A stretch of 64,000 nucleotides of DNA from Bdellovibrionales bacterium (GCA_965203785.1 OZ241911.1:100013-164012); one strand, 5' to 3'; positions 726-36,695 are shown, counted from the first letter of the stretch. Notes: a model not told the origin generated them from the sequence alone. Numbers and translations: made by a program.

Positions 726-733
726 AAACCCTT

Positions 734-3290: not shown

Positions 3291-3379
3291 TATACTGTGA
3301 TGCTGAAGTCGCTTTTTTATATTGAAATAACTGGTTTAATGAAGATCAATACAATTAGGAATGAATAAGTTAAAAAAAA

Positions 3380-3456
<77 letters not shown>

Positions 3457-3627
3457 AATAAAAACTCATAACCTTTACATACTACCACATTCATAGCTCT
3501 CAACCATAATATTCCTCTTACAGCAAATACTTTCACCTTCTTTCAACAATTTCACCTTCTTTTTCACAAGTATTCTGCAATCTTTATCTTGCCTTTAAGT
3601 CTAAATCAGTAGACATTCTATAGCATA

Positions 3628-9142: not shown

Positions 9143-9277
9143 TTTTGATGATCTAACAGCAAGGATCAAAAAACTCAAGAGACAATACTTGACTTAACTG
9201 GTAAATCGCTTAAATATTTTTGTTCAATGACTTTCCAAAACTCTAAACAGAAATTAAATCTAAAAAGAATTTAAAAA

Positions 9278-9817
9278 ATGCCAGATAAAAAAAAAGTTTT
9301 AAAATCGATTACACCAACTCAAAATACAAAACAATATTGGTTGATGAAATCAGAACCCCGAGTGTATTCCATTCAACATTTAAGAAAATCAGGTAAAGAC
9401 TTATGGGATGGGGTCAGAAATCATCAAGCTAAAAATTTTATGAAACACAATATGCAAATAGGAGATGAAGTCTTATTTTACCACTCCAACGCCCAGCCAT
9501 CTGGTATTGTAGGTTTAGCTCGTGTTTCTAAAACCGCTCGACCAGATCCCACCGCCTTTGACTCTCGTTCTCCCTATTATGATCCCTCAAGCCATCGCAA
9601 TAACCCTCGGTGGTTTTGCGTAGAAGTGACATTCAAAGCGTGTTTTAAACGGATTTTATCTTTGGCAGAACTTAAAGCCCAAAAAAAATTATCCCGCATG
9701 CTCGTTTTAAAAAAAGGTCAAAGGCTTTCGGTCATGCCGGTTACAAAAAAAGAATACGAACACATATTGGTTTTATCTCAACTACCAAAACGATCTAAAC
9801 TATCAAAAAAGGACTAA
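9278..9817 (+). CDS. EVE (PUA-like) domain protein
   Basis: YWLMKSEPRVYSI..L...GKDLWDGVRNHQAKNFM..MQIGDEVLFYHSN....GIVGLARV is the typical EVE/DUF55 pattern. Confidence 0.8.
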   Translation: MPDKKKVLKSITPTQNTKQYWLMKSEPRVYSIQHLRKSGKDLWDGVRNHQAKNFMKHNMQIGDEVLFYHSNAQPSGIVGLARVSKTARPDPTAFDSRSPYYDPSSHRNNPRWFCVEVTFKACFKRILSLAELKAQKKLSRMLVLKKGQRLSVMPVTKKEYEHILVLSQLPKRSKLSKKD

Positions 9818-9823
9818 CTCCCA

Positions 9824-12027: not shown

Positions 12028-13515
12028 TTAGGGAATTTTGCACAAAGTAGTTTGTCGGGTTAAGTTCTGATAAGTGGAAAGAGTAGAAATTCCCTGTGCT
12101 TCGTAAGCTTGTGCATAATCAGCTGGTTGTCTATCGTGCTTGTCCATTAAACAAACATTTGCTCGGTTTTTTAATAAAACTTTCACCACCGATGAACGAT
12201 ATCCTTCTTGAACGGCATAGTGCAAGGGGGTTTTTTTTTGATCATCTAAAGCATCAATCTGTGCTTTGGCTTGTAAAAGTAGTTGCACCTTGGCACGGGA
12301 TCCCACACCACTTGCATAATGTAAGGGGGTTCGTTGGTTTTTGTTGCTCGAATTGGGATTTGCTTTGTGGTCTAATAGAATTTTTAAAACTGCCAAGTTC
12401 GTGTTTTGTTTCGCTGAGTAATGTAAAGGAGTGTTTCCATAATTATCGGCTTGATTGACAAATGCTCCTAATTGAATGAGTCGCTTAACGACTTCCACAT
12501 GGGGGGTTTCCCCAGTTGCATAATGGAGTGGAGTGTCTCCATCTTCATCTTTAATATTTACAGACCAACCATGATTGACTAAAAAATCAATCATCTGCGG
12601 ATTTTTATTTTCTGCAGCCGCTTTATGTAAAGGACTACTCCCTCCCCGTCCCAGTTGATCTCGTTTAAGCTCTTTGCTTCGAAGAAGTGTTTCTAATACA
12701 GTAGCATTCTGGCTATAAGAAGCCCCCCAAAGTAAAGGGGTATCCCCATAGCGATTACTGGCATTGACATCACTTCCCATTTGAATCAAAGTTTGTGCAA
12801 TTAGAGGATTGGAATTAAAAGCCACTGCCCAGTGTAAAGGAGTGCTGTGTTCTAAGTCACGACTATTGGGATCAGCTCCCGCATTAATGAGTATTTGAAT
12901 AACTTGAGGGTTGGAATTTTTAGCAGCTGCTTTATGCAATAAACTCAATCCATTAATGTTAGTAATTTTTACATGTTTTACTTGATCTAAAAACCAATTG
13001 AGTATTTGAGTGTTTGGATTATTTCCCACCAGAGAATGCAAAACACTATCGCCTTTGTGGTCACGAGCTTTGTAATCAGCCCCTGCTTTTAAACTCATTT
13101 GAATAATTTTTTCATCTCGAGAAAAAGCCGTTACATAATGCAAAAGAGTTTTACCTCGTTCATCATGCCAATTCACATCGGCTTTATGGGATAATAAAAT
13201 TTGAAATTTTTTTGGATCTTTAATGGCATAATAAATGGGGGGATAGCCATGTTGATCTAAAACATGAATCGCACTTCCTTTTTGAATCAACCATTCGGTA
13301 ACTTGAGAATTTAAGTTATACTGAATGGCATAATGTAAAACAGATCCTAAGTCTTTCCCTCTGCGTGTTAAGTCTTTTTCCGACACTAAAAAAGATAAAA
13401 CTTTAAGATTTTTGACATAAGCACACACCCAATGCACGGGATGATTAAACACCGGATGGGTATAATAGGCATAAAAACTAGATCCTAAAACTAACAAGCA
13501 TAATATCCATTTCAT
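12028..13515 (-). CDS. Ankyrin-repeat protein (~13 repeats) with an N-terminal signal/anchor sequence
   Basis: MKWILCLLVLGSSFYAYY is followed by repeated G.TPLH.A......V...L...GA..N units throughout. Confidence 0.88.
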   Translation of the reverse strand: MKWILCLLVLGSSFYAYYTHPVFNHPVHWVCAYVKNLKVLSFLVSEKDLTRRGKDLGSVLHYAIQYNLNSQVTEWLIQKGSAIHVLDQHGYPPIYYAIKDPKKFQILLSHKADVNWHDERGKTLLHYVTAFSRDEKIIQMSLKAGADYKARDHKGDSVLHSLVGNNPNTQILNWFLDQVKHVKITNINGLSLLHKAAAKNSNPQVIQILINAGADPNSRDLEHSTPLHWAVAFNSNPLIAQTLIQMGSDVNASNRYGDTPLLWGASYSQNATVLETLLRSKELKRDQLGRGGSSPLHKAAAENKNPQMIDFLVNHGWSVNIKDEDGDTPLHYATGETPHVEVVKRLIQLGAFVNQADNYGNTPLHYSAKQNTNLAVLKILLDHKANPNSSNKNQRTPLHYASGVGSRAKVQLLLQAKAQIDALDDQKKTPLHYAVQEGYRSSVVKVLLKNRANVCLMDKHDRQPADYAQAYEAQGISTLSTYQNLTRQTTLCKIP

Positions 13516-18271: not shown

Positions 18272-19354
18272 ATGACCCAATTTGCAAAAAATAAAAAACT
18301 CAGCACTCCATTTTCAAACTCAATCGAAACAACCGTCCAATCTCTTTTAGTTAAAGGCACACCAATTAGAAAAATTGCCAAGCAATTACTAAAAAAAAAA
18401 GCCGTCCAAACGAATGCAAATTACTTTCACCAAGTTTGCCGATTTTTGTATCAAGCGGGATTAGACCAAATGCTGATCCAAGTTTGCAGTTGGAGATTGA
18501 AAAACAAAAAAATTATCCCATGGAGTTTTTTAATAGAAACTTTATCGTCCCGAAAAATTCAAGTTCCTAAAAAAATTCAACGAGTTTTCTTAAAAGGCAT
18601 TCACGAACAAAAACAAATTAAAGAAATGCTCACCAGTCGAAGCTGGGATCATAACCATCCCGAATTACAAGAATGGAAAACTCAAACAATCCAAATAATC
18701 TTTAACAAAAAAAACAAAAATTTTATTAAACTCATGGAAGATTTAGAGTTTATCCAAAGCCAAGGAGTTTTACAAAAAGAAGAAGAAATTCTAAAAAAAT
18801 TGAAAAAAATTGATCCTCAAAATCCAGATATTCAAGAAAAATGGAATCAATTTAAAGAAAAATGGGGACGACACATTATTCGAAAAAAAAAACAAGAATT
18901 GTTGACAAAAACTACTCCACCATCCCCTCCGCCCAAAGAAGAACTGGAATTTGCTAAAAAACTTTTAAGTCTTGCAAAAAAAATGTTAAAAAAACAACCT
19001 CAACTCGGCGAAAACTTAGCTTTGCTGTTTTCTTTTATTGGTTATCCTCGTATGGCGGTCAGTCTTTTAGAAAATCAATTACATTCTTCGTCTAGTGAAT
19101 GGTTATATATAGACCTACTGTTACAAAGCCAACTGTATGTGAGTTGCTTAAGTTTTGCAGACTATATGGAAATGAAATATAAAAATAACCCCGACACTGT
19201 TTTTGCTCTATCTTATACTCGTTCTAAAGCCTATTATGGCTTGGGGAAAAAACAAAAAGCTAAAAATATTTTAAAAGAATTGCTAAAAATTCGACCTAAT
19301 TATCGACTCATTTATGTTTTATTAGAACAATGGGAAAAGGGAGTAGAGCATTGA
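18272..19354 (+). CDS. Hypothetical protein (helical, possible TPR-like C-terminus)
   Basis: A 360-aa ORF packed tightly between efp and the tamB-like gene. No motif recognised. Confidence 0.5.
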   Translation: MTQFAKNKKLSTPFSNSIETTVQSLLVKGTPIRKIAKQLLKKKAVQTNANYFHQVCRFLYQAGLDQMLIQVCSWRLKNKKIIPWSFLIETLSSRKIQVPKKIQRVFLKGIHEQKQIKEMLTSRSWDHNHPELQEWKTQTIQIIFNKKNKNFIKLMEDLEFIQSQGVLQKEEEILKKLKKIDPQNPDIQEKWNQFKEKWGRHIIRKKKQELLTKTTPPSPPPKEELEFAKKLLSLAKKMLKKQPQLGENLALLFSFIGYPRMAVSLLENQLHSSSSEWLYIDLLLQSQLYVSCLSFADYMEMKYKNNPDTVFALSYTRSKAYYGLGKKQKAKNILKELLKIRPNYRLIYVLLEQWEKGVEH

Positions 19355-19362
19355 AAGTGCCG

Positions 19363-22300
19363 ATGGTTCGATGGGTTCGGTGGGTAGCCATTATCACATT
19401 ATTGATAAGTGCCACTTTTTTTGCTTATCAGTTACAATCTAAAGCTAAAAAATGGGTAACTACCCAAGTAATTAACGTAATAAAAAAAAAACAAGCTCAG
19501 TTGGGGGTTCGCATTCGATGGGAAAGCTTATCAATTTCTTGGATTCCGTTAAGAATTAACATTAAAAATATCACCTTTCGTTTTCCCAATCGTTTTTTAT
19601 TTGCAGAACCGATTACCAGTAAACAACTCATTATTTCACCGGATTACATGCATCTTTTAAAAAAAAGATTAACTGCCAAAATAACCGCCCTGCAAGCTCG
19701 TATGGTCATTCAACCATCTCAGAAAAAAAATGCTAACGGATTTAAGGTCCTCACTCAAAAATACACAACTTGGTTAAAAAATATTCCACTTGTAAAGCTT
19801 TCTTTAAAATCGGCTCATTTAATTGTTCATACCCCAAAAGAGAGTTTAGAAACTCAAAATATAGATATTCAACTCCTATCTCGAAAAAAACAAACTACTC
19901 TTAAAATGGAAGCTCCCATTATTCAACTGGGCAAGCAAGCTTTGTTTTCTTTAAAAGCAAATATCGCATTAAAGCCGGATATGATTTTTTTTAAAGATTT
20001 TTTATTTCATAATCCTTATTCTCTTTTAAAATTATCGGGTCAGATAAAAGGGGATTTTTACAAAAAACAATTAAACTCCAGTCGATTAAAGATAAAAATT
20101 AAAGCTTCTGCAAACGACTTTTTAAGTGTACACCAATTGATCCATCCTCAAGCACAAGCTCTTTATAAAGGAGTTGTTTCTTTAACAGCTGATATGCAAT
20201 ATCGTCCCAATCCAAAAAAGAACAAAAAATTTTCTGCTCAAAATATTACGGGCGATTTTAATTTTTCTACTAAAAATTTTTCTGCTCAAAACATCTTTTT
20301 TTCAGAAATAAAAGCCGTGGGAAATTTAAAAAATAAAAAGCTCTATTTTGATCAATTTTATATTCAACATTTACCCAGTTGGGATATTCGTTTAACTGAT
20401 TTTAAAATCCATTTAGAAAAACCTTATTTTTTTAAAACCCATCTTAGAATTAAAAACAGCCAACTTTATTCACTACTCAAAGCGGTTAACATTTCATCTC
20501 GAGTTTCTTCTCTAATAGATGGTGGATGGAATTGCCAAGGGAGAGGTCAAGGAGCAGAAAAAAAACCAACTCTTAACTGCAACGGAGAAGCTCAAATCCA
20601 ACAACTTTCTGTTCGATATAAAGCCACAAAAAAAAAATTACAAACACCTCCTATTTTAAAAGTTCCATCTTTTAATTTTAAAAATCAAATCTCTATGGAA
20701 AAAGATATTTTAACTGCCCAAACCGTCGCATTTACTGACACTTCTTTATTAGATGGAAACTATCGCTTAAATTTAAGAAAAAAAGATTTTTTGGCCCACC
20801 TCCAAGGAAAGCTCAATTTTTCGGATATAGAAAATTTAGTTAATCTTTCTCCAAAGGGCTTAGTCGATATTAAAAATGCCAGTTTTAAAATTTCTCAAAA
20901 AAAATTAGAAGTTCAATCGGATATGGAGGGGGAAAATATACAAATTGCCAATTTTAAAGCGGGACATTTAAAAACTCATTTAACTTATGCAGATGGTTTT
21001 TTACAGTTCAATCGGGTTAAAGGAAGTTTCAAAAAATCTCGCTACAGAGGTTATGTGCACTTTAATCTTTTTAAAAGTACCATTCAGTCTTTTGCTGATT
21101 TCCCGATTATTCGATTAGAAAACATTACCCACAGTGTGGAAAAAAGAAGAACTTTACCCGTTCGATGGAATGGGGGTGGAAGTTTAACGGCTTATTTAAA
21201 AGGTCCTTTAAAGAAAAATGCTCTCTATTACACTATACGATCTCAATTGAGTGAAATAAATTTAGAAAAAGAGCAATTTAAAAAAGCAATGATCCATGTG
21301 GAATCTCAAAATGGTCATTTAAAAACCCACCAGATGGAGTTTCACAAAGAACATGGGGAAATTAAAATAAATGGTGAGATACTTCCAAACGGAAACATTC
21401 ACGCCAATATTAAAGGCTCTCACCTTTATTCCAACGACTTCCAAAATATTCAAAAGTATACTAAGGGTTATTTTTCATCCAATTTAGATTTTGACATGCA
21501 AGTTGGGGGGACTTATTTAAAACCTGAAGCAAAAACCCAACTGATACTTCAAAACTCATCTTTTAAAGGGCAAGCATTAAGAGATTCGAAATTATCTTTA
21601 ATTTTATATCCCGATCGAGTAGTGGGTTTAGGACAATTATTTAATGAGTTAAAAATTCAAAAATTTATATTCCCCTATCAAAGCAGAAAAAAAGTGATGT
21701 TATCTGTTAATGCAAAAAAATTTAATCTCCAACCTTTTTTATCTGGCAAATCTTTTGATACCAATTTTCAACATTCGTCCCATGTAGGTGGTGAAATAGA
21801 CATCACTTACAAAAAAAATCATTTTGATCAATCGAGTAACGGGCAAATTAAACTCAATAAAATATTTTTACAATCGGGACCCCACTTTTTACAAAATCAA
21901 AAACCCCTTTTGATTACCCTACAAAACGGAAAAATAAACACATCTCCGATCGTACTCATGAGTGAAATGAAACCTTTAAAAATCACTCCTTTCAATAAAA
22001 ACCATTTAATGATCGATGGGAGTTTGCCTGCATCTCTTTTAAATTTTTTATTCCCGTCTATAAAATTTTCGGAAGGAAGATTGCAAACTTATCTAAAAAT
22101 TAACTCTCAATTATCTCATTTGCAAACAACTGGTCAGATTCAACTTAAAGGAACTAAAGTTCAACTTCATCCTTATTTAGATCCTTTAGAAGGTGTGGAT
22201 TCTCTCATACAGATTCGCAATCGAAAATGGGAAGTTCAATCTCTCCAAGCAAATATGGGGGGTGGGCATATTAATCTCAAAGGAGATATTAATTTTATTC

Positions 22301-23358
22301 GTAAAGGGAAGATACCTATCCATATTGAAGGGGATTTTCAGCAAGTGCATTGGAAGAGCTGGCCGAGCATGAGTGCTAAAGGGGATGGGAAAATTCGAAT
22401 CACTGGGCAAAAATTTCCCTACAAACTATCTCTCATAGCTGACATTAAAAGTGCAAAAATTAAAAAAAATTTTTCTTCTTCGTCTTCGTCGGCTAATCCA
22501 TTTAATCTCAGTCCTTTTGTTTTAACCCAGACGGAAAAAGAATCTTTTAATGTCGTGGATATGGATTTTGATTTAAATTTTAAAGAGCCTATTCGTATTC
22601 AAAATTCTCAAATGCAATCCCATTTAATAGGAAATGTTTACATAACCGGTCGACCTGCTCAACCTATTTTATCTGGAAAATTTAAAATTCAACCTGGTGG
22701 AGAAATTATTTTCCGAGATCACAAATTTAAAATCACCTCTGGTCAATTAATTTACCATAAAAATAAAGCTCAAGAACCTTTTATTCGATTAACGGCTCAA
22801 ACTTCTGTTCTAGAGCAAAATATCACCGACAATTTTAAAAACGAATATGACATTCTTCTCAAAATTAAAGGTCGAGGTCATTTAGCCACTTTTACTTTAA
22901 CTAGCTTGCCAGCATTAACAGAAAACGAAATTGTCTCTTTATTAGTTTTTGGCACTCGATCGATGAGTTTTCAATCGTCTAATTCTTCAAACATTGTTCA
23001 ACACGATATTATTAAATACTCTTATTATCATCTGGCACCTGTTTTATTTCAAAAGGCTATTAACAAAGAGTTTCAACATACATTAGGTATGGATTTTTTA
23101 ATTGTTCCTTATATTAACTCTAAGAAGCACACAGTTTCTACTAAACTCATCGTAAAGAAAAAAATTTTTAACCGGTTAAATGTTTCTACCAGTCAAACAT
23201 TTTTAGATAAAAATTCTGAAAAAAATATTACAGCCGAATACACTGTTAATCCAAATGCCTCTTTAGTTGGATGGTGGAAAAACGAAAACTTAGCCGGCAC
23301 AGATGATCAAAACTCTAATGTACTAGGTTTAGATTTGGAGTATCAAATTGCATTCTAA
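19363..23358 (+). CDS. tamB: TamB-like translocation and assembly module protein (DUF490-type C-terminus)
   Basis: About 1330 aa with an N-terminal anchor (WVRWVAIITLLISATFFAY), a long beta-rich body and a C-terminal region typical of TamB. It lies directly upstream of an Omp85 gene. The start is moved to ATG 19363 to avoid overlap with the upstream gene. Confidence 0.7.
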   Translation: MVRWVRWVAIITLLISATFFAYQLQSKAKKWVTTQVINVIKKKQAQLGVRIRWESLSISWIPLRINIKNITFRFPNRFLFAEPITSKQLIISPDYMHLLKKRLTAKITALQARMVIQPSQKKNANGFKVLTQKYTTWLKNIPLVKLSLKSAHLIVHTPKESLETQNIDIQLLSRKKQTTLKMEAPIIQLGKQALFSLKANIALKPDMIFFKDFLFHNPYSLLKLSGQIKGDFYKKQLNSSRLKIKIKASANDFLSVHQLIHPQAQALYKGVVSLTADMQYRPNPKKNKKFSAQNITGDFNFSTKNFSAQNIFFSEIKAVGNLKNKKLYFDQFYIQHLPSWDIRLTDFKIHLEKPYFFKTHLRIKNSQLYSLLKAVNISSRVSSLIDGGWNCQGRGQGAEKKPTLNCNGEAQIQQLSVRYKATKKKLQTPPILKVPSFNFKNQISMEKDILTAQTVAFTDTSLLDGNYRLNLRKKDFLAHLQGKLNFSDIENLVNLSPKGLVDIKNASFKISQKKLEVQSDMEGENIQIANFKAGHLKTHLTYADGFLQFNRVKGSFKKSRYRGYVHFNLFKSTIQSFADFPIIRLENITHSVEKRRTLPVRWNGGGSLTAYLKGPLKKNALYYTIRSQLSEINLEKEQFKKAMIHVESQNGHLKTHQMEFHKEHGEIKINGEILPNGNIHANIKGSHLYSNDFQNIQKYTKGYFSSNLDFDMQVGGTYLKPEAKTQLILQNSSFKGQALRDSKLSLILYPDRVVGLGQLFNELKIQKFIFPYQSRKKVMLSVNAKKFNLQPFLSGKSFDTNFQHSSHVGGEIDITYKKNHFDQSSNGQIKLNKIFLQSGPHFLQNQKPLLITLQNGKINTSPIVLMSEMKPLKITPFNKNHLMIDGSLPASLLNFLFPSIKFSEGRLQTYLKINSQLSHLQTTGQIQLKGTKVQLHPYLDPLEGVDSLIQIRNRKWEVQSLQANMGGGHINLKGDINFIRKGKIPIHIEGDFQQVHWKSWPSMSAKGDGKIRITGQKFPYKLSLIADIKSAKIKKNFSSSSSSANPFNLSPFVLTQTEKESFNVVDMDFDLNFKEPIRIQNSQMQSHLIGNVYITGRPAQPILSGKFKIQPGGEIIFRDHKFKITSGQLIYHKNKAQEPFIRLTAQTSVLEQNITDNFKNEYDILLKIKGRGHLATFTLTSLPALTENEIVSLLVFGTRSMSFQSSNSSNIVQHDIIKYSYYHLAPVLFQKAINKEFQHTLGMDFLIVPYINSKKHTVSTKLIVKKKIFNRLNVSTSQTFLDKNSEKNITAEYTVNPNASLVGWWKNENLAGTDDQNSNVLGLDLEYQIAF

Positions 23359-25828
23359 ACCAGCACTCCTTATTAACTATTTTAGTGTTGGATTGTTTTT
23401 TTTACTTTTCAACCTCAATAGTTTTTCTGCACCTGTTGATAACCAGTTAAAAAAACCTTCGTCGTTTACCACCTCGCTTGCCACTCATAACACCATTCAA
23501 AAAATTAAAGTGATTACAGAAAATAAACAACTAAAATCTCGTATAGAAAAACACTTAGCATCTTACCGAGGTCAGGTGATCTCTTCTGCTTTAAAAAACA
23601 CAATTCGTCAAAAAGTTTTTTCTTTACTCCAAAAGAAAAGATTTTTTTGGCCCAATTTAAATGGTCCGATTTTTTTTTCTACCCCCCAAGGGGTGATTGT
23701 ATCTATTTTTATTAACCACCCTTATCGTTATGGATGGATTCTAAAAGGGAACCAACACATTCCTTCTGACCAATTGATAACAAAAAAAATTAAAAACCAA
23801 ATATTTAATCATAGAAAGTCTGAGCAAAAACTGATTGAGTTAATTAAAACGGCTTATTTAAAAAAAGGTTATTTTCGAGTTCGCATTCAAAGTCGCACAC
23901 AAACTGACTCTAATCGTTTTGTTAAAACTTTTCGCCTATTTATTACAGAAGGTCCAATTTTAAAAATTAAAACTATTCAGATCACCGGACGCTTTTCTCG
24001 TCCGACTCATTATTACATGCGACTGATCAAAAAATTTAATCGTGTTCTCATTCGAAACAATTTTTTTTATAAAAACACATGGGACAAAGGGGTCACCAGT
24101 TTAAAAAATCAACTGAAAAAAGAAGGTTATTTACAAGCGAACCTTTACTCAAAAATTAAAAAAGAAAAAAACCAAGTGACTATTAATATTAACTTAAATG
24201 AAGGACCTCTCACTCAAATTAATCAAATGACATTTAAAGGTAATCATCATTTTTCGGATCATCAGTTGCAAGAGCTCATCCAAACCAAACCTCAATTGGG
24301 ATGGAATCCTTATTTATTGGATCAAGATGTTCACACTCTTATCAAAGCCTATAAAGAGCAAGGTTTTATGGAGATGACTATTAACACAAATAACATGATT
24401 TCTTACAATCCTTCGACTGCCAAGGTGGATTTGTTATTTGATATAAAAGAAAATCAAAAAATTATTGTCTCCGATATTATTATTCAAGGAGCTGGAATCA
24501 CAAAAAGTCATTTTATAAAAAAAACTTTGCCATTAAAAATAAATGATATTTTAACCTCAAAAAAAATTAACTACTCGATAAAAAAATTAAGAAAGCTGGG
24601 TATTTTTTCTTCTGTGGATATTTTAGTTGTCAATACGAAAAAAAAACAATCTCGTAAGAGAATTGTTATTGTAAAAGTAAAAGAAAGAAAACCGAGATTA
24701 ATACGCATAGGAGCTGGATTAAATACAGAGCGTGTTTTAACAGCTCGGGGGTTTTTACAATTATCTCACCATAATTTATGGGGTGTCGGTCGAGGAGTTT
24801 TTTCTAACATAAAACTGCAATCTAACATGGCTCGGTTATTTGATATGATATCTCCAACCCTTCCCCATATTGAACATCAAGCAGACCTTATTTATACAGA
24901 GCCATTTTTGCTTCATTCTCCTTTTAGTGGGCAGGTGAGTTTATCTCATGCCAATACTATTTCTCTCTACAATAAAGACCAAAATTCTCTGAATATCGCA
25001 AACACTGCTAAATTGAATTTTAATTTACAAAAAGAGATTAACCCTCATATCAACTGGCAATTGACCTTACTGAGCTGGGAGGGGAAAAAAGAATTTGAAA
25101 AAAGCTCTCGATGTTTGAATAGAAATGTTGGTTTGCAATCACTTCCACCCCAACTAAAAGGAATTTGTGAAGATCGAACCCTCAATATGACTGGTACGGG
25201 ATTAGCCATTAATATAGATAAAAGAAATCAAGTGATTTCCACTTCAGAGGGTTTTTTATCTAAATGGTTTGTAGAACACACAGGTCCTTACTTTCCGAAC
25301 AGCTCGGAAGAAATTAATTTTATCAAAATGGAGATGAAACATTTTGACTTTCACTCTCTTTTTGACCAATTGGTATGGGTGAACTCTTTACAAGGGGGTA
25401 TGATTTTTAACCTCAATAAAAGCTTAAACAATAGTGGGTTTCCGGTTAGCCGATCTTTTATCTTAGGAGGAGTTAATTCTTTAAGAGGATTTGACGGACT
25501 ATTAGATGGTCAGAGGGTGCCCGATAAAGAAGAAATGGATATTTCTGGTGCAAATCAAATAATTATGGCCAGTTCTTCTGTTTTTTTTCTCATCAAAACA
25601 GAACTGCGGTTTCCGATTAACAATCAATTAAAGGGGAGTGTTTTTTACGATGGAGGGGGAGTGATGATTTCTGGTATGGACTTTAAACAACCTTATCGGC
25701 ATTCAGCGGGTTTTGGGCTTCGATATCGAACTCCTTTAGGGTCTATATCGGGATATTTAGCTTTTAAAATCACTCCTAAAAAAAATGAATCTCCATTTTT
25801 ACCCCATTTGTCATTTGGGAGTTTTTAA
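23348..25828 (+). CDS. bamA: Omp85-family outer membrane protein assembly factor (BamA-sized, multiple POTRA repeats)
   Basis: 826 aa with a signal peptide and repeated POTRA-like units (I..I.I.G........I). The C-terminal barrel has RGF (VNSLRGFDG) and ends in ...LSFGSF (terminal aromatic). Confidence 0.8.
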   Translation: MHSKPALLINYFSVGLFFLLFNLNSFSAPVDNQLKKPSSFTTSLATHNTIQKIKVITENKQLKSRIEKHLASYRGQVISSALKNTIRQKVFSLLQKKRFFWPNLNGPIFFSTPQGVIVSIFINHPYRYGWILKGNQHIPSDQLITKKIKNQIFNHRKSEQKLIELIKTAYLKKGYFRVRIQSRTQTDSNRFVKTFRLFITEGPILKIKTIQITGRFSRPTHYYMRLIKKFNRVLIRNNFFYKNTWDKGVTSLKNQLKKEGYLQANLYSKIKKEKNQVTININLNEGPLTQINQMTFKGNHHFSDHQLQELIQTKPQLGWNPYLLDQDVHTLIKAYKEQGFMEMTINTNNMISYNPSTAKVDLLFDIKENQKIIVSDIIIQGAGITKSHFIKKTLPLKINDILTSKKINYSIKKLRKLGIFSSVDILVVNTKKKQSRKRIVIVKVKERKPRLIRIGAGLNTERVLTARGFLQLSHHNLWGVGRGVFSNIKLQSNMARLFDMISPTLPHIEHQADLIYTEPFLLHSPFSGQVSLSHANTISLYNKDQNSLNIANTAKLNFNLQKEINPHINWQLTLLSWEGKKEFEKSSRCLNRNVGLQSLPPQLKGICEDRTLNMTGTGLAINIDKRNQVISTSEGFLSKWFVEHTGPYFPNSSEEINFIKMEMKHFDFHSLFDQLVWVNSLQGGMIFNLNKSLNNSGFPVSRSFILGGVNSLRGFDGLLDGQRVPDKEEMDISGANQIIMASSSVFFLIKTELRFPINNQLKGSVFYDGGGVMISGMDFKQPYRHSAGFGLRYRTPLGSISGYLAFKITPKKNESPFLPHLSFGSF

Positions 25829-30583: not shown

Positions 30584-30599
30584 TGGCTTCGTTTTTGCT
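30584..30599 (+). promoter_or_regulatory. Sigma-54-type (-24/-12) promoter upstream of the flp-like gene
   Basis: TGGCTT-CGTTT-TTGCT has GG (30585-86) and GC (30597-98) exactly 12 nt apart, as in TGGCAC-N5-TTGCW. It lies ~33 nt upstream of the ATG, with an AAGGAGG Shine-Dalgarno in between. Confidence 0.55.
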
Positions 30600-30630: not shown

Positions 30631-30945
30631 ATGAAACATTTAATTCCTAGGCTTACAAAACAAAGTTCTCAGCTTAAAAAACAAAGTTTTAGGCCTACAA
30701 AACAAAAAGGGCAAGGTTTGATTGAATATTTAATTTTGATTGCTTTAATGGGGGTGGCGACTATTGGAGTGATTCGAGTTTTGAATCAGACAATTAAAGC
30801 TCGTTTTGCTTCGGCTATTTATGCCCTTCAAGGAAACCCCAAAAAAGTTAAAACTGAGAGTCTTCAAAAAAACAATTATCAAAAATCGGATTTGAGTGAC
30901 TTTATGAGTGGTGCCGCCAGCCAGAAAAAAAAGACTAAAAGATAA
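30631..30945 (+). CDS. flp: Flp/Fap-family type IVb prepilin (unusually long, 104 aa)
   Basis: A basic leader is followed by KG|QGLIEYLILIALMGVATIGV, which is the G/xxxxEY Flp motif plus a hydrophobic helix. Strong Shine-Dalgarno. Confidence 0.75.
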   Translation: MKHLIPRLTKQSSQLKKQSFRPTKQKGQGLIEYLILIALMGVATIGVIRVLNQTIKARFASAIYALQGNPKKVKTESLQKNNYQKSDLSDFMSGAASQKKKTKR

Positions 30946-31289
30946 TGAAATATAAAAGAGGGCAAGCCGTTATGGAGATGGTCATGTTTTTACCTTTGGC
31001 ATTTGGAGGCTTGGTGGTGTGTTTATTTGTGTTTTACACTTGTTCGAAACAGTTATGGGTGGATCATCAACTGTATCAATTTTTAATTTGTTTATCTCAA
31101 AGAGTAAATCAGCTTAAGTGCCAAAGAAAGTTAAAAAAAGGTATTCGTTCATTTTTATGGATGGGAGATAAAATAAAAACTCTGAAATTTAATGGGAAGG
31201 AGAACAAATGGAGCGGTTATTTAGTAATAGAAAATATTTATATTCGAGGAGTTTGGAAAAAAAAAGTTCACTTCAACGGGGATTTATAA
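30945..31289 (+). CDS. TadE-like pseudopilin
   Basis: MKYKRG|QAVMEMVMFLPLAFGGLVV is a TadE-type N-terminus with Glu at +5. The start overlaps the flp stop. Confidence 0.6.
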   Translation: MKYKRGQAVMEMVMFLPLAFGGLVVCLFVFYTCSKQLWVDHQLYQFLICLSQRVNQLKCQRKLKKGIRSFLWMGDKIKTLKFNGKENKWSGYLVIENIYIRGVWKKKVHFNGDL

Positions 31290-31948
31290 GCATGTTTTTA
31301 TTGTTAACTCCTTTACTTATAACTTGTCTTATGGTGTTTATCAGTTTAATTTTTTGCATCCGAAATTATACTCAATCTCAAAGTTTATGTATTAATTACA
31401 CAATGAAAGCTCAAAAAATAGCAGGCAGACAATTAAAAAAACTTTTAAAATTAAATCCATTAGCTGATCGATTAAGAGCTATGTATCGAAAACTAAAACA
31501 TGCGTATTACATAGCAATTACTATGGGAAACAAAGTGTCCGCTCTGGCGATTAAAGAGCAAATCCGAATCATTCAACAAAAAAGATATGCCTTAGATTTA
31601 AAACAAAAAAATATTTTAAATGACAGTCTCTCCCAAATAAAAAAAGTTTTTTTTAAATTTAAAAGAAAATTGGCAAAGTTTAAATCTCCCAAAATACGGA
31701 TGTTGCATCCTCTCCCTTTTGGTTTAGCCATAAAGGCTAGACCTACTAAAGACATTGCACCATCTTATTATGTAAAATCTCATTTTTCTAAACGGCAAAA
31801 AATTTCGATTAATTGGACTATGTTTCTTTATCATTTTTTGCCTCATTGGTTGGATATTTCTTTTTTTAACAAGCTATTATCTGCTTATAGTTGCTCAAGC
31901 ACTTTATATAAAAAGAAGAACACATGGATGATTGGACTTTCTTCTTAA
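31208..31948 (+). CDS. Hypothetical membrane protein, possible TadE/G-like N-terminus (start uncertain: 31208 or ATG 31292)
   Basis: ..LQRGFISMFLLLTPLLITCLMVFISL resembles a Tad pseudopilin N-terminus but lacks Glu at +5. The rest is Lys-rich with no recognised motif. Confidence 0.45.
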   Translation: MERLFSNRKYLYSRSLEKKSSLQRGFISMFLLLTPLLITCLMVFISLIFCIRNYTQSQSLCINYTMKAQKIAGRQLKKLLKLNPLADRLRAMYRKLKHAYYIAITMGNKVSALAIKEQIRIIQQKRYALDLKQKNILNDSLSQIKKVFFKFKRKLAKFKSPKIRMLHPLPFGLAIKARPTKDIAPSYYVKSHFSKRQKISINWTMFLYHFLPHWLDISFFNKLLSAYSCSSTLYKKKNTWMIGLSS

Positions 31949-32025
31949 AGTTTTAAAATAGAGAAATAAAAGGTGAGTGAGAAAATGTTAAATGGTGATA
32001 TGAAATTTTAAAGGAGGTAGTGTAA

Positions 32026-32208
32026 ATGATAAAATGGCAATTTGTAAAAAGGCAATTGCTAAGAGGGCAAGCCCTAAAGGGGCAGGTGATATTAGAACTT
32101 TTATGGGTGACTTTATTTATATGTACTTTTTTAAGTATTATGTCTTTTATGTATGAAAAGGGAAAACAAGAAATTCGATTCAGCCGACAAATCAAATCGA
32201 CAAATTAA
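32026..32208 (+). CDS. Small prepilin-like protein (60 aa)
   Basis: A strong AAAGGAGG Shine-Dalgarno lies upstream of the ATG. ..LRGQALKG|QVILELLWVTLFICTFLSI has Glu at +5 followed by a hydrophobic helix. Confidence 0.5.
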   Translation: MIKWQFVKRQLLRGQALKGQVILELLWVTLFICTFLSIMSFMYEKGKQEIRFSRQIKSTN

Positions 32209-32256: not shown

Positions 32257-32787
32257 ATGGACAACAAAAAAATTAAAGATTGGATTATCCAACATCCTCA
32301 AATTAAGTGGTGGTTAGTTTTAATGGGAGTATCGGTGGTTTTTACTTACTCGTCTTACTACCAAACAACCAGTCATGAGGGCATAAAGGGTCAGAAAGAT
32401 TATCTTTCTAAAAATGTCGATACTTTAATCCCAGAGGGTTTTGTTTTATTACCTGTCGAATTAAGCAATCGGGATTCTTTGGATGGTTTTTTGCCAGAAA
32501 AAGGGGTAGTGGATCTTTATGTTTCTAATTCTTCCTCGATGAAAACGATTAAAGTGGCAGGTGGAGTTAAAATTATTCGATCTCCACAGAACCCAGATCA
32601 ATTAGCTGTATTAGTTTCTGAGAAAAAAGCTCGATTTTTAATTAAAAGGTCTGAGGCTTTTTATGCTATTATTCAAAACCCAGAGAAAAGAGGAGAGGGG
32701 GTATATCCTTTGGGAACGGCGAAACCCAAAAGGCAGATTATTATAGAACATAGTTTAGATTCCACTCCCATGTCAGAGAATCTGTAA
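32257..32787 (+). CDS. CpaB/RcpC-like protein (RcpC-type domain only, no SAF domain)
   Basis: An N-terminal TM (WWLVLMGVSVVFTY) is followed by IPEGFVLLPVELSNRDSLDGFLPEKGVVDLYV, which resembles the RcpC/CpaB C-terminal domain pattern (ip.G.r.v.v....v.gfi.pGd.VDv). Confidence 0.4.
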   Translation: MDNKKIKDWIIQHPQIKWWLVLMGVSVVFTYSSYYQTTSHEGIKGQKDYLSKNVDTLIPEGFVLLPVELSNRDSLDGFLPEKGVVDLYVSNSSSMKTIKVAGGVKIIRSPQNPDQLAVLVSEKKARFLIKRSEAFYAIIQNPEKRGEGVYPLGTAKPKRQIIIEHSLDSTPMSENL

Positions 32788-32849
32788 TGTAAGAACTTTA
32801 TAAAAAGAAAGTATAAAAAAAGAGATATTAAAATTAAAAAGGGCTTATA

Positions 32850-33935
32850 ATGAATTTTAAAAAAAGATACCTCTATTATGGGATTTATTGGGGAGTGTAT
32901 TGGGGTATTTTATTAACTAGCTTTTCAGCTTTGGGCGAAGATAATTCTCATGAGGTTTTAATTCGCTCAACAAAGACTCGTTTTTCAGAATTTAATTCTT
33001 TTTTACAAGTGGAGTTTATAAAAACTTATGCTCAATATCAGTTAGATGAGGTTAGAAGTCGCACTCGACCCATTCATTTATCTTCGTTGTTTAAAAAATC
33101 TCAAGCTGAATTTTTATCTCACAATCCCAGGTCAGCTGAACGGACTTATCAAAAAATTGTTCGCCACATCCATGCTTTTGATTGGAACGAAGAAGAGAGA
33201 AAAATTATTTTTTACACTTTATTTCGCCTTGCTCAACTCAAATTAGATACTAAGAAAAAGAAATTATTCTTAAAAGAGGCGATGACTTTTGGTTTGAATT
33301 TAAAAATTGATTTTAATATTTTTCCTCCTCCTTTAACCACCATGTATTCGAAAATTCGAAAATCAGTTAATCGGGTATTACTAGATTTAAAAAAGATTTT
33401 CCCAGACCATGAGTTAATTGTCATAAACGGCAAAACTTTTAAAAGAGGTGAGAAAGTAAAACTTGGCTATGGAATGTATCGGATCAGTGCTTACAGTTCG
33501 TCTCATACACCTTGGTCGCAAACACTATCTTTATCTCGTTTAATCGTGCAGACTGTTCGCACTCATTCTTTAACAGATCCGAATAGCAATTGTCGAAGTG
33601 GAACCATTGCAAATTTACAAACTCAACTTAAAAAATCTCTAAAAGGTAAAATATTATTTCCAAATTTTTGCGTCTACAATTTAAAAACAAAATCTGCTAA
33701 ATTTAATCACTACAAACCTTTAAAAATGATGTCAAAATCGCATTTAAAAAGAAATTTTAAAAAAGCAAAATCAAAAGAAAATATTTGGGAAAATTGGAAA
33801 AGTCATAAAAAAATGTGGATGATAGGGGGAGTTGCCTTATCTGGTGTGGTGCTATACTTTTTGTTAAAAGATAACAAGGTTCCACCCAATGCTCAGCGTT
33901 CAAATAGTTATCCTATAATTAAGGTCAAATTTTAG
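32850..33935 (+). CDS. Hypothetical exported protein with a C-terminal membrane anchor
   Basis: Signal-like N-terminus (YYGIYWGVYWGILLTSFSALG) and a C-terminal TM (MWMIGGVALSGVVLYFLL). Lys-rich. It is the last gene of the pilin-like operon, and its stop overlaps the stop of the convergent gene (TTAG). Confidence 0.5.
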   Translation: MNFKKRYLYYGIYWGVYWGILLTSFSALGEDNSHEVLIRSTKTRFSEFNSFLQVEFIKTYAQYQLDEVRSRTRPIHLSSLFKKSQAEFLSHNPRSAERTYQKIVRHIHAFDWNEEERKIIFYTLFRLAQLKLDTKKKKLFLKEAMTFGLNLKIDFNIFPPPLTTMYSKIRKSVNRVLLDLKKIFPDHELIVINGKTFKRGEKVKLGYGMYRISAYSSSHTPWSQTLSLSRLIVQTVRTHSLTDPNSNCRSGTIANLQTQLKKSLKGKILFPNFCVYNLKTKSAKFNHYKPLKMMSKSHLKRNFKKAKSKENIWENWKSHKKMWMIGGVALSGVVLYFLLKDNKVPPNAQRSNSYPIIKVKF

Positions 33936-36577
33936 CGACCTCTTCTGTCTTTTGGTCGGATTCGCCTTCTTCTACCTGTATTATTTCTACTACCTCCTCC
34001 GCCAATACCACCTAAGCCTACATTGACACCACCTTGAAACCCACCTGCAAAATTACCGCCAATGCCTCCGCCTCCCATCATAATGTCTTGGATTTGCATT
34101 TGAAGACGATTGATCTCTTGGTAAAGAGAAGAAGCAGCTTGTTGCCGTTGCATCCAATTTCTCATTTGATTTTGTCTCCAAGACATAACCATTTGCTGAT
34201 ACGATGCCATCTGCTGCCACTGATTGTTAAGTCCCATCATGGGGTTCATCATGTTCATGCCGGGGAAACCACCCGTCATACCTGGAAACCTACCCATCAT
34301 GCCTGGGAACATACCTGGGAAATTACCTCCAAAGTTTACACCTCCAGTAAAACCTGGATTACCACCAAACATACCTGGGAACATACCTGGGAAATTACCT
34401 CCAAAGTTTACACCCCCCATCATGCCTGGGAACATGCCCGGGAAATTACCTCCAAAGTTTACACCCCCCATCATGCCTGGGAACATGCCCGGGAAATTAC
34501 CTCCAAAGTTTACACCCCCCATCATGCCTGGGAACATGCCCGGGAAATTACCTCCAAAGTTTACACCCCCCATCATGCCTGGGAACATGCCCGGGAAATT
34601 ACCTCCAAAGTTTACACCCCCCATCATGCCTGGGAACATGCCCGGGAAATTACCTCCAAAGTTTACACCCCCCATCATGCCAGGGAACATGCCACCACCC
34701 CACATATTACCACCTACTGTAGGCGAACATGCAAGAGATGAGCGATTGCCCCACATCCCTCCGCCATAAAGCCCTGCTTGAATAAAGGGAAAAGCAAGTC
34801 CTAAAGCCATCCCTGGTTGTGTGGGAAAGCCTTGGCTTTCTAACCTTTTATTGGCATGCCTCATGCCAAAATAACCAAGTGCCGCCCCGCCAAGAGCTGT
34901 AGCGGTTCTACCCAATATCTCCCACCCCGAAGGGCCTGGGTCTACAATCTCTTTAATCTCTCTTAGTCTTCTTAATCTGCAATCTAAACAATCAGCTCCT
35001 CCTTCTGTCGACTCACCACTTAATAACTGGGCTAATCTTTTAGCTTCTATCTCGTCTCCTAACTCCTCTAAAGTCTCTTTTAATTCTTCTATTCTTTCGT
35101 CTAAAATTTTTTCTCTATCAATTAGTTTTTTAAGGTTTTTTAAAGACTTCTTACACTCTTTGCCGGTATCTGAATCGTTACGAGAAAACCTACTACCACC
35201 ATCTTCGCTACTACTACCAAGACGCGGAACTCCTGTTTCTTTTAATCTGCATGTGTCTGGGCGATTGCAAATCCTTGTAATATCTATTTTTATTCTACTT
35301 TTAGATCTATTACCTCTTTTTGCACAAGCTTGCCAGCTTTTAAAAGCTTGACACGAAGGAGTTAATACGCATTTGTTTTCTTCTACATGATGACCTCGCT
35401 TTTTGTTGCAATCTGTTTCTATTTCCTCTTCAGTTTGTGTTAAACCCTTTTTAGCTTTTTTTAAAGTTGCCTTAGCCTCTATGAAGCTTTCAGCATTATC
35501 TTGGATATTGCTAAAAGCTCTTGTTTCTTTGCTGTAAATTCCATCTTCTTTAGTTAGTAATAGGGAGTTATTCTCGTCAGAAGTTACTTTATCTCTAACT
35601 TTTCCATTATTACTATTAGTTTCAAAATCTTGAACTTTCGAAAAAGCGCCATTCAATTGATCTTTCAAATCATCTATATCAGTACCATACGCATTTTCTA
35701 ATATATTTTCATCTGAATTTTCAACAGCATTTTCAAATTGAGTTCTTTTTTTGTTTATAGCTTTTTCATAAGCTATTAAAGCATCTTTAGCTGCTGTTAG
35801 TGTTGTGTTTTGCATGCTATAACTATTGTGGGGATTTTTTTTGGCTAGCTTTTCATAATAATCAGAAGATTTTTGTAATTGTTTTTTTAAGTTTTTAATT
35901 GCTGTATTAGTGTTGTCTTGACTTTCTTTTAAATTATTGTTTTGTTTTTTAAAATTCCCTCCTTTTTTTGTTTTAAAGTCTTTTAATGTTTGTTTTGCTT
36001 CATCTACTGCCTTTGTCTGTTTTGCTACACTTTTTTCCAAAGAACCAGACTCTTCACTGTTATCATCATCATCACTTAAAAAATCATCTATCGCATTAGC
36101 ATAAGCAAAACTTGGCCATAAAAAAGATAAAAACAAAGGGATATGTTCATCATCATTTTTACTTCTATTGCTATCTACTAAAAACGAAGTGCTTTTTTGA
36201 TATAAAAAGCTTGATTCTGATTTTATTGGGCAAAACCTATTGTTTGCTTTGTTTAAATTTAGACCATCTCTTATAAACTCGTGGATTTGATCGGCAACAG
36301 GAGAGGCCCATTTGTTATAGCCTAAAGCACTTTCGACTGAATCTCTAGAATCTGCAATTTTATCTCGAATTCTTTCTTGTTGTTTTTCTAATTCTTTTAA
36401 TTGTAATTTAACTCTTAGTATTTTAGAATTGTCTTTGCTTAAGTATCCACCTTCTCTTTGTTGTAAAGCCTGCAAGTATAATGGCAAAGCACAGTTTGCA
36501 CCCTGATTCCAATACGACAGTGCGAAAAAAGAATAAAATAAAGTGCTTAAAAAAATCAAAAATTTAAAACAGCTCAT
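33932..36577 (-). CDS. Large exported protein: coiled-coil N-half, Cys-rich segment, Gly-rich hydrophobic segments, 17-aa G/M/F/P/N tandem repeats, Q/N/M-rich region, Gly-rich and Arg-rich tail
   Basis: An 881-aa ORF with a signal peptide (MSCFKFLIFLSTLFYSFFALS) and (MMGGVNFGGNFPGMFPG) x6 plus variants. The C-terminus reads ...NQWQQMASYQQMVMSWRQNQMRNWMQRQQ...GGGGIGGNFAGGFQGG...RRRRIRPKDRRGR. No known family recognised. Confidence 0.75.
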   Translation of the reverse strand: MSCFKFLIFLSTLFYSFFALSYWNQGANCALPLYLQALQQREGGYLSKDNSKILRVKLQLKELEKQQERIRDKIADSRDSVESALGYNKWASPVADQIHEFIRDGLNLNKANNRFCPIKSESSFLYQKSTSFLVDSNRSKNDDEHIPLFLSFLWPSFAYANAIDDFLSDDDDNSEESGSLEKSVAKQTKAVDEAKQTLKDFKTKKGGNFKKQNNNLKESQDNTNTAIKNLKKQLQKSSDYYEKLAKKNPHNSYSMQNTTLTAAKDALIAYEKAINKKRTQFENAVENSDENILENAYGTDIDDLKDQLNGAFSKVQDFETNSNNGKVRDKVTSDENNSLLLTKEDGIYSKETRAFSNIQDNAESFIEAKATLKKAKKGLTQTEEEIETDCNKKRGHHVEENKCVLTPSCQAFKSWQACAKRGNRSKSRIKIDITRICNRPDTCRLKETGVPRLGSSSEDGGSRFSRNDSDTGKECKKSLKNLKKLIDREKILDERIEELKETLEELGDEIEAKRLAQLLSGESTEGGADCLDCRLRRLREIKEIVDPGPSGWEILGRTATALGGAALGYFGMRHANKRLESQGFPTQPGMALGLAFPFIQAGLYGGGMWGNRSSLACSPTVGGNMWGGGMFPGMMGGVNFGGNFPGMFPGMMGGVNFGGNFPGMFPGMMGGVNFGGNFPGMFPGMMGGVNFGGNFPGMFPGMMGGVNFGGNFPGMFPGMMGGVNFGGNFPGMFPGMFGGNPGFTGGVNFGGNFPGMFPGMMGRFPGMTGGFPGMNMMNPMMGLNNQWQQMASYQQMVMSWRQNQMRNWMQRQQAASSLYQEINRLQMQIQDIMMGGGGIGGNFAGGFQGGVNVGLGGIGGGGSRNNTGRRRRIRPKDRRGR
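34296..34700 (-). repeat. In-frame 51-bp tandem repeat array (~8 units, 5 of them DNA-identical at 34418-34672)
   Basis: The unit catcatgcctgggaacatgcccgggaaattacctccaaagtttacacccccc recurs at 34418, 34469, 34520, 34571 and 34622. Diverged copies flank these on both sides. Confidence 0.95.
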
Positions 36578-36598: not shown

Positions 36599-36695
36599 TT
36601 TGTCGTTTGTTGTGCCAATTTGTTTGTTTTTTGCTTTTTTCCAATCTGTTTGTTGTTTGTTCCAATTTTAATTTGTTCCAATTTGTTTGTTCTAA
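36599..36695 (-). repeat. Repeat-rich upstream region of the 881-aa gene (4 copies of CCAAT(T/C)TGTTTGTT on the plus strand)
   Basis: Copies begin at 36615, 36641, 36662 and 36678. The region includes TTGTTGTGCCA, which recurs upstream of the 461-aa gene at 41421-41431. Confidence 0.55.

Follow-up and report, generated by a model that had tools for sequence, protein, structure and literature searches.

The window analysed here is a 64,000-nucleotide stretch from a Bdellovibrionales bacterium (GCA_965203785.1 OZ241911.1:100013-164012) with a GC content of about 35 %. The presence of TamB and BamA genes at 19330-25828 indicates a diderm source. On its minus strand the window encodes an 881-amino-acid (aa) protein, the target of this analysis, which belongs to a conserved family of Bdellovibrionales genetically linked to type IV filaments. 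The target gene is convergent with a six-gene plus-strand module that starts with a Flp-type pilin, and the stop codons overlap: TTAG at 33932-33935 provides TAG for the plus-strand gene 32850..33935 and TAA for the target. The open reading frame (ORF), its segments and the overlapping stops, as described in the initial annotation, are all present in the sequence, including the Q/N/M/W segment, the poly-Gly stretch and RRRRIRPKDRRGR.

AlphaFold2 (AF2) models of the core and of the full-length protein were built with the family alignment; their confidence is given as predicted local distance difference test (pLDDT) values. The gene possesses the following features:

33932..36577, minus strand: whole ORF, 881 aa plus stop, ATG start, intact, conserved in the family
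36512..36577, minus strand: Sec-type signal peptide, aa 1-22, predicted cleavage ALS/YW (KD19 [Kyte-Doolittle] peak 1.71; AxA-type sites in orthologues)
36233..36511, minus strand: conserved N-terminal domain, aa 23-115 (alignment consensus; AF2 pLDDT 88-98 for aa 51-115)
35408..36097, minus strand: hypervariable K/N/E/D-rich helical middle, aa 161-390 (composition, orthologue comparison, AF2)
35249..35371, minus strand: Cys-rich module C..WK.W..CA...(I/L)C..P..C, aa 403-443 (family alignments; AF2 pLDDT 79-89)
34943..35173, minus strand: predicted core coiled coil, aa 469-520, with invariant C475, the TEGGADCLDC turn and a helix, aa 531-545 (AF2 pLDDT 93-98)
34979-35008, minus strand: TEGGADCLDC, aa 524-533 (sequence)
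34751..34927, minus strand: two glycine-zipper hydrophobic helices, aa 551-574 and 589-609 (sequence, AF2 helices)
34718..34735, minus strand: SLAC617SPT, with an invariant Cys right after the second hydrophobic helix (family alignments)
34253..34732, minus strand: uncharged Gly/Met/Phe/Pro/Asn low-complexity domain, aa 616-775 (composition; disordered in AF2)
34370-34693, minus strand: 51-bp tandem repeat, 6.4 copies, 98 % identity (DNA-level repeat analysis)
34079..34231, minus strand: amphipathic, Q/M-rich helix, conserved in the family, aa 783-833, probably a coiled coil (consensus heptads; AF2 pLDDT 64-81)
33935..34078, minus strand: Arg-rich C-terminus preceded by a poly-Gly segment, together aa 834-881 (conserved only in the terminal R-G-x)
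36635..36695, minus strand: cluster of four direct repeats resembling TTGGAACAAA, all inside 60 bp, in the intergenic region of 420 bp upstream of the target (perhaps regulator sites)

The TTGGAACAAA-like element has 22 one-mismatch matches across the whole window, including the four clustered upstream of the target. The cluster is not conserved upstream of orthologues, and a regulatory claim was dropped. Two plus-strand ORFs, 34034..34741 (235 aa) and 34224..34769 (181 aa), have repetitive translations and were rejected as genes, being antisense artefacts of the repeats.

A conserved family of Bdellovibrionales

The initial annotation had called for a search for homologues. An exhaustive HMMER search with target aa 1-615 as query, with matches counted as cluster representatives, revealed 75 other representatives matching the target core, a conservation well above chance, so that the target is not an orphan. 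E values are <= 1e-10 for 22 listed proteins and <= 1e-30 for 13, the query self-match counted in, and all but one of the relatives align to aa ~400-615 of the target. Labelled relatives are annotated as 'hypothetical protein' of Bdellovibrionaceae, Pseudobdellovibrionaceae or Bdellovibrionales metagenome-assembled genomes. A scan of GTDB species representatives with the close-core alignment A2 detected twelve loci in eleven genomes. Eleven of the loci are labelled 'Bdellovibrionales bacterium', with chromosomes of 1.3-2.3 Mb for those on chromosome-scale contigs, and one is a Bdellovibrio sp. The same scan with the single target protein gave no match.

The word-index search with the full-length target returned only the target itself, the candidate list being filled by low-complexity words, and the word-index profile search with alignment A1 gave no match. 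With the core of the Bdellovibrio sp. J124 protein, the word-index search detected four Logan proteins and gave no link to gene numbers of cultured B. bacteriovorus (HD100) or to its Tn-seq data. Exact-sequence look-up retrieved no record for the target or for relative P0002. A phage or plasmid origin of the target was rejected, since the family core was not found in the phage and plasmid collections.

Pfam returned only noise for the target (best E 0.039, under cutoff), NCBIfam returned zero matches, and no Pfam family matched any of the 28 members of alignment A4 (the target and 27 relatives). In the PDB, the phmmer search with the target gave only a low-complexity match to an ARID protein, the family profile gave coiled-coil noise only (E >= 0.025), and Foldseek with the core and full-length AF2 models gave no match (E >= 3.5). 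This agrees with the initial annotation, which had not recognised the architecture and would have been overturned by a match to a characterised family or by interrupted ORFs in relatives. No such match appeared, and the ORFs are intact at seven module-adjacent orthologous loci. At the level of sequence comparison, the target is thus confirmed as a real, conserved and uncharacterised protein of Bdellovibrionales. Because neither Pfam nor NCBIfam nor the PDB, searched by sequence and by fold, accommodates the target, and because it lacks the testable features of the candidate families, we regard both the protein family and its architecture as new, as judged from its sequences and predicted folds.

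Members of the family follow a common plan. A Sec-type leader with an AxA-like site is followed by (F/Y)(F/W)xxG..NCALPLYLxALQ, helices, a VxDQIxEY motif and a conserved Cys; in the orthologue alignment, the AxA-type cleavage site falls directly ahead of (F/Y)(F/W)xxG..NCALPLYL. Accordingly placed in the target are the NCALPLYLxALQ motif, a helical hairpin, the VxDQIxEY motif and then conserved C116. The middle is hypervariable and consists in orthologues of Ala/Lys, Ala/Asp or Pro-Thr repeats, or of extra Cys-rich modules. In the target, residues 161-390 have K14/N11/D10/E9 % and are modelled by AF2 as long helices. The module C..WK.W..CA...(I/L)C..P..C comes next, in which C409 and C437 are invariant, C443 is nearly so and C418 is so in one alignment out of two, and then a long helix from invariant C475, ending TE(A/G)xxCxxC. 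The hydrophobic hairpin is ordered as IDPxPSGWxxLG-GxxGxAALGYYG, a (K/R)xANKLRDRQGF loop, and AQPGxALGLAYPFIxxGLYGGGLFG, and is followed by SSLAC617SPT.

The C-terminal part starts with an uncharged Gly-rich repeat region of 190-375 aa, whose repeat unit is lineage-specific. Examples are GGMMPGMM, NFGGQFPGM, GLNTGFNT, GGGYPGGGF and FPGMGGFGG, of which GLNTGFNT (locus L001) and GGGYPGGGF (L006) have no Met. The region is followed by a Q/M-rich segment with the consensus MQxYMQYQQAxMxxxQxQMxNxMQxQQAASxLxxEIxRLQMQIQxI, by GGGG, and by a variable tail ending (I/V)(I/V)RG(I/L) or GR. A short-tail subfamily (P0028, P0030, P0032, P0040, P0047, P0049, P0050, P0055, P0069 and P0072-P0075) does not possess the long Gly-rich region. 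Its members stop 15-25 residues past the conserved Cys, and their end is a Pro/Tyr-rich peptide whose C-terminus is aromatic (e.g. ...SPYPHPYPTYPMSY).

In the AF2 models, aa 31-115 are helical, aa 469-520 form one long helix (pLDDT 93-98), both Gly-rich hydrophobic segments are helical (pLDDT 66-76), and aa 122-178, 606-782 and 835-881 are disordered.

The CxxC motif at the turn between long helices is similar to the zinc hook of Rad50, and Rad50 hook fragments gave weak family-profile matches over this motif (E 0.14-0.23, not significant). Unlike Rad50, the target has no ATPase head and is predicted to be extracytoplasmic, a location in which its CxxC would more probably form a disulfide than bind Zn.

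Export, topology and the low-complexity tail

The prediction of an exported protein was borne out by the signal peptide, with its hydropathy peak and the AxA sites of orthologues, and by even Cys counts. Cys were counted in 26 full-length members, the N-side running from the Cys of the N-terminal motif to the hairpin and the C-side comprising everything after the hairpin. The N-side number is odd (5 to 43) and the C-side number is 1 or 3, giving an even total in 24 of the 26 members; the binomial tail is about 5e-6 if the members are independent, but they are related, so the figure overstates the evidence. The variable middle gains Cys in pairs, and invariant C617, after the second hydrophobic helix, brings the total to even. 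The even number of Cys across both sides of the hairpin implies that the N-terminal part and the tail are extracytoplasmic, in the same oxidising compartment. Judged from signal peptide and parity, we consider it settled that the protein is exported and disulfide-rich, with both halves outside the cytoplasm.

The hairpin helices carry overlapping (G/A/S)xxx(G/A/S) motifs and GxxxG patterns. Helix 1 is bordered by Trp on one side and by Tyr-Tyr and Lys/Arg on the other, and the loop joining the two helices, ANK(L)R..QGF (ANKLRDRQGF), is basic and highly conserved. Because of this loop and the Trp/Tyr belts, we infer that the two glycine-zipper helices form an inner-membrane hairpin with a cytoplasmic loop. 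In having two Gly/Ala-rich helices of moderate hydrophobicity, the target is similar to known glycine-zipper hairpins (Gly-zipper/Rick_17kDa_Anti, SlyB; VacA-type GxxxG channels); it differs from them by the long coiled coil upstream and the intrinsically disordered region downstream. The Pfam Gly-zipper and Rick_17kDa_Anti models gave no match to the target at E <= 1.

The position of C617 allows another interpretation, namely a polyprotein with an internal lipoprotein signal, in which signal peptidase II would cleave at S-L-A-C617 and free the Gly-rich tail as a lipoprotein anchored through C617. SSLA ahead of the invariant Cys fits the last four lipobox positions (relaxed PROSITE-style, -4 to -1), and an uncharged hydrophobic helix and a positive segment precede C617 in N-in/C-out orientation. 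However, the target has Arg at -5 and Ser at -3, a lipobox does not allow the residues found at -1 in the short-tail subfamily (N, T, F, I, V or H), and a lipidated C617 would make the Cys total odd, contrary to the parity. To our knowledge there is no precedent for an internal lipoprotein signal of this kind, and we regard such processing as very improbable.

The 160-aa low-complexity region of the target has G35/M16/F16/P12/N11 % and a net charge of +1, and includes six perfect protein-level copies of MMGGVNFGGNFPGMFPG at aa 634-735. Such near-perfect, lineage-specific repeats likely make this a length-variable locus. The 56 family tails are uncharged and Gly-rich, with hydrophobic stickers and Q/N, and in this respect the FG-like composition proposed in the initial annotation is found throughout the family. 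The proposed prion-like character fits poorly. Residues 776-830 (Q25/N11 %) are the most conserved part of the tail and are modelled by AF2 as a 51-residue heptad-patterned helix, in which hydrophobic residues occupy 11 of 15 and 10 of 15 positions in two registers three residues apart, a heptad a/d pattern. Since this is the best-conserved part of the tail and its helix model is heptad-patterned, the Q/M-rich C-terminal segment looks like a coiled coil rather than a disordered prion domain.

The tail is comparable with those of FG (GLFG-type) nucleoporins, as it is long, disordered in AF2 and near charge-free, with Gly, spaced F/M/Y/L stickers and N/Q/T spacers; this is a resemblance in composition and not homology. 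Unlike FG nucleoporins, the target is bacterial and exported, has no nucleoporin anchoring domains, and carries unrelated repeat units that turn over between close lineages.

The Met density of the repeats had also been taken as a hint of Cu(I) binding. A periplasmic Cu(I)-binding or copper-buffering protein would agree with a Met content of 16 % in the window repeat domain and of up to 32 % in some relatives. Across the family tails, however, Met ranges from 0 to 32 %; several tails have only 0-5 %, with L/F/Y/I in the repeats instead, and some units are free of Met. No His/Asp/Cys partners or MxxM spacing, as in the 'Mets' motifs of CopA, PcoA, CueO and Ctr1, are conserved across the family, and no copper genes are located nearby. 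As the Met-richness is lineage-specific, Cu(I) binding is unsupported, and a copper-related role seems hardly credible.

The polyarginine tail, listed in the initial annotation, proved to be lineage-specific. The Arg-rich cluster at the C-terminus is present only in the window and in L003, and many orthologues have an acidic C-terminus ending (I/V)(I/V)RG(I/L). A poly-Arg function and a C-terminal sorting signal were both rejected as family features. For sorting signals (PEP-CTERM, GlyGly-CTERM, MYXO-CTERM, LPXTG etc.), Pfam and NCBIfam gave no match, and no C-terminal transmembrane segment (TM) was found.

Neighbourhoods with type IV filament genes

The plus-strand module that converges on the target gene comprises six genes:

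30631..30945, plus strand: Flp-type pilin (flp104), first module gene, G/QGLIEY prepilin motif (Pfam Flp_Fap E 0.0023, below cutoff)
30945..32208, plus strand: t114 (G/QAVME), t246 (TadG-like hydrophobic N-terminus) and t60 (G/QVILE), pseudopilin-like (motifs conserved in orthologues)
32257..33935, plus strand: t176 (TM and IPEGFVLLPVELSN...VVDLY) and t361 (exported, C-terminal TM) (synteny in 7-9 genomes)

The Flp prepilin motif is kept in eight loci, and t176 is presumably CpaB/RcpC-like. Profile libraries gave no match to the small module genes (TadE/F/G, CpaB). The target itself does not possess the class III prepilin leader G/xxxxE, which is seen in flp104, t114 and t60, but a classical Sec-type leader.

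The Flp/pseudopilin module adjoins the family member in the window and in L001/L004, L002, L003, L005, L007, L009 and L011 (partial in the latter), and in Bdellovibrio sp. (L014) one gene lies between module and member. The locus L003 is rearranged, with the member upstream of the module on the same strand. The context of L005 matches the window throughout, including a CaNa antiporter, DksA, arginase, SBP5, folD-gcvTH and BamA. Other pilus genes are found around several copies: T2SSF and FHA proteins in L001, a Tad secretin and a T2SSE ATPase in both L002 and L008, and in L010 the order pilB-pilT-pilC-pilS-[member]-pilR, where pilS encodes a PilS-like kinase and pilR a PilR-like sigma-54 response regulator. 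In L013 a partial family copy is convergent with pilMNOP. In total, 11 of the 13 distinct loci have a type IV filament neighbourhood, of three different kinds. We regard the genetic link between the family and the type IV filaments of Bdellovibrionales as settled. Inherited order alone would hardly explain the adjacency, which is kept through the inversion/relocation in L003 and in three kinds of pilus cluster. Compared with the single convergent neighbour of the initial annotation, the target is thus part of a conserved family whose tie to type IV filament loci reaches well beyond that gene.

Three copies differ from the others in their integrity or surroundings. The C-terminal-half copy of L013 (10073-11122) and the L009 gene belong to one genome, and their near identity points to a partial duplication of recent date. 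In L006 the copy (9995-11197) is apparently split, with its N-terminal piece in a separate ORF at 8151-8486 (frameshift or assembly error). The L012 copy (8822-11209) has YhgA-like transposase genes on both sides.

A sigma-54-like -24/-12 element, TGGCTTCGTTTTTGCT, is located at 30584-30599 on the plus strand, where it precedes the flp gene by 32 nt. A TTTGCA(T/C)A -12-like element is found upstream of flp in several of the orthologous loci, and L003 has TGGAATCGATTTTGCA. The sigma-54-like element is not conserved in orthologues and was dropped as a regulatory claim.

Possible role and other genes of the window

Flp/Tad and type IVa pili are essential for Bdellovibrio-like predation (PMC5430801, PMC3818213). 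Flp pilins, including the non-TAD flp4, are needed for predation by B. bacteriovorus, and not for adhesion (PMC5430801), and Bd2719, which adjoins flp4, was noted as Bd0109-like (PMC3818213). Tad minor pilins make interchangeable tip complexes in predators, Bdellovibrio among them, and in Myxococcus contact killing is mediated by Tad tip complexes (PMC12075869).

From the neighbourhoods, we infer that the family works with type IV filament machines, with Tad/Flp pili in the window and with type IVa pili for some other copies. The target is quite possibly an inner-membrane-anchored, disulfide-stapled periplasmic scaffold or tether, or an accessory protein, of Tad/type IV pili with a cohesive tail, and we favour this assignment tentatively. 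The glycine-zipper hairpin would anchor the protein in the inner membrane, with the ANKLRDRQGF loop in the cytoplasm, and one disulfide would link C617 with a site close to the CxxC in the N-terminal part. The Gly-rich, uncharged tail may serve as a flexible, self-cohesive linker like those of FG nucleoporins, its length tuned through repeat expansion and contraction, while the Q/M-rich helix would oligomerise as a coiled coil and the terminal (I/V)xRG(I/L) peptide would dock a partner. At the predatory pole, such a multivalent periplasmic scaffold or tether could support or organise the basal body of the pilus together with its tip module of minor pilins.

Large envelope-anchored scaffolds of type IV pili with coiled-coil or low-complexity regions and a lineage-varying repeat number are represented by FimV, HubP and TspA; FimV and HubP possess one TM and an acidic cytoplasmic repeat region. 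Similar to these, the target is a large, predicted envelope protein, genetically linked to pili, with coiled-coil and low-complexity regions and lineage-varying repeats. Unlike FimV and HubP, it has no LysM or FimV C-terminal motif in Pfam and no sequence homology to them, and its repeat tail is uncharged and, by Cys parity, extracytoplasmic.

Several points weigh against the scaffold assignment. The full-length AF2 model has low overall confidence (pLDDT 58.5, predicted template modelling score 0.40). The hairpin helices are marginally hydrophobic, with a Kyte-Doolittle value of about 1.0-1.2, below the usual threshold of 1.6, and hold Lys, Arg and Pro, so that a permanent membrane anchor is uncertain. 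The assignment of the neighbouring pseudopilins rests on conserved prepilin motifs, without profile matches. Two loci have no pilus link, L006 with its split ORF beside NifU and a cysteine desulfurase, and L012 with its flanking transposases, and the synteny may partly reflect the kinship of the genomes.

These two loci would also suit a general structural protein of the envelope that has no specific role in pili, either a polar hub or a tether or ruler spanning the periplasm like TolA, TonB or Lpp, whose pilus linkage would be inherited gene order. An elongated coiled coil with a disordered linker of lineage-specific length agrees with such a protein, as do the housekeeping genes on the other flank in the window and in L005. 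We consider it unlikely, given that the adjacency withstood the rearrangement in L003 and recurs in the three kinds of pilus cluster.

The marginal hydrophobicity of the hairpin is of interest for the main alternative to the scaffold assignment, which we judge somewhat unlikely: a prey-directed protein, secreted through the pilus machine or docked at its tip. After Sec export the protein would be soluble in the periplasm with its weakly hydrophobic hairpin buried, and its mature N-terminus (YW..G..NCALPLYL) would dock to the minor-pilin complex, like TcpF and CofJ. It would then be pushed through the secretin, the hairpin entering the prey envelope as a pore or anchor and the cohesive tail gluing or sealing the contact site. 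TcpF of Vibrio cholerae and CofJ of enterotoxigenic Escherichia coli dock to the minor pilin of type IVb pili and are secreted by them. Like them, the target possesses a Sec-type leader, is encoded next to type IVb-class pilin and minor-pilin genes and has a short conserved mature N-terminus, the conserved motif lying within about 8 residues of the predicted mature N-terminus; unlike them, it is much larger, has a hydrophobic hairpin and a low-complexity tail, and shows no sequence similarity. The direct adjacency of the gene to the pseudopilin module agrees with this explanation, and a hypervariable middle with repeats and Cys-rich modules is typical of surface and host-interaction proteins.

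Long antiparallel helices around a Gly-rich hydrophobic hairpin, as modelled by AF2, recall alpha-pore-forming toxins such as ClyA, XaxAB and YaxAB, and two unrelated neighbours, p428 and p461, carry a TEAG-CxxC motif, p428 with a weak match to XaxA. Nonetheless, the target has no sequence or fold similarity to any toxin: the alpha-xenorhabdolysin/ClyA class (NF033928 etc.) gave no match in NCBIfam, and Foldseek gave none either. The basic, highly conserved loop and the Trp/Tyr belts suit a resident membrane hairpin better, and some copies lie beside machinery or regulatory genes (pilS/pilR, pilMNOP) and not beside pilins.

A bolder extension of the scaffold assignment, decidedly unlikely in our estimate, is that the tails are an extracytoplasmic analogue of the FG meshwork of the nuclear pore, an inner-membrane-anchored, coiled-coil-bundled cohesive gel or condensate in the periplasm. 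The gel would surround the Tad/type IV pilus machines or occupy the junction between predator and prey. It might gather the machines at the predatory pole or keep the opening in the envelope sealed during passage of fibre and cargo, and repeat expansion and contraction would tune its properties. If true, the tail would be a rare nucleoporin-like, charge-free cohesive domain outside the bacterial cytoplasm, and it bears on the question whether the periplasm is a place where phase-separating or hydrogel domains act. The positioning and anchoring of predatory pilus machines and their coupling to prey entry are poorly understood, and the family is a lineage-restricted, pilus-linked candidate component. 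The repeat locus may also be useful as a strain marker in uncultured small-genome Bdellovibrionales.

Further genes are located elsewhere in the window, among them the tandem paralogues (E 1e-20) named above:

38658-39944, minus strand: p428, 428 aa (sequence)
39959-41344, minus strand: p461, 461 aa (sequence)

Both carry a 'QTEAG..C.EC' motif in addition to a signal peptide, six Cys each and several Gly-zipper segments. A motif of the form TE(A/G)xxCxxC occurs only three times in the six-frame translation of the window, in the target, p428 and p461. The match of p428 to alpha-xenorhabdolysin subunit A (XaxA) has E 8e-6 and scores 25 bits, where the cutoff is 125. Homology of the target to p428/p461 was rejected (BLASTP E 0.09-0.4; hhalign 20 columns, 34 % probability), and the similarity was treated as a common motif only. 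Since the pair is missing from the syntenic locus L005, it is considered an insertion in the window. Next to it, a 152-aa ORF at 38129-38587 (minus strand) matches only the C-terminal end of DUF4143 and is probably what is left of a gene; in L011 and L013, genes of the AAA+/DUF4143 type are full-length, at 382-390 aa.

A 160-aa putative lipoprotein at 41821-42303 (plus strand), with an LTSC lipobox-like leader, several Cys and a Pro/Thr/Ala-rich C-terminal tail, gave no family match. At 12028-13515 (minus strand) the window encodes a 495-aa protein that consists almost wholly of ankyrin repeats (Ank_2 E 4e-91). Such a protein is uncommon in free-living bacteria and might be a sign of contact with a host, eukaryotic or other. 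The first 4000 nucleotides (1-4000) have a GC content of 25-29 %, compared to about 36 % elsewhere, and adjoin a tRNA gene at 3383-3456. This stretch (90-1501, plus strand) carries a complete or fragmentary gene for a C5 cytosine methylase and also encodes a restriction endonuclease of the R.HinP1I type and a DUF4209 protein, and looks like a small acquired island.

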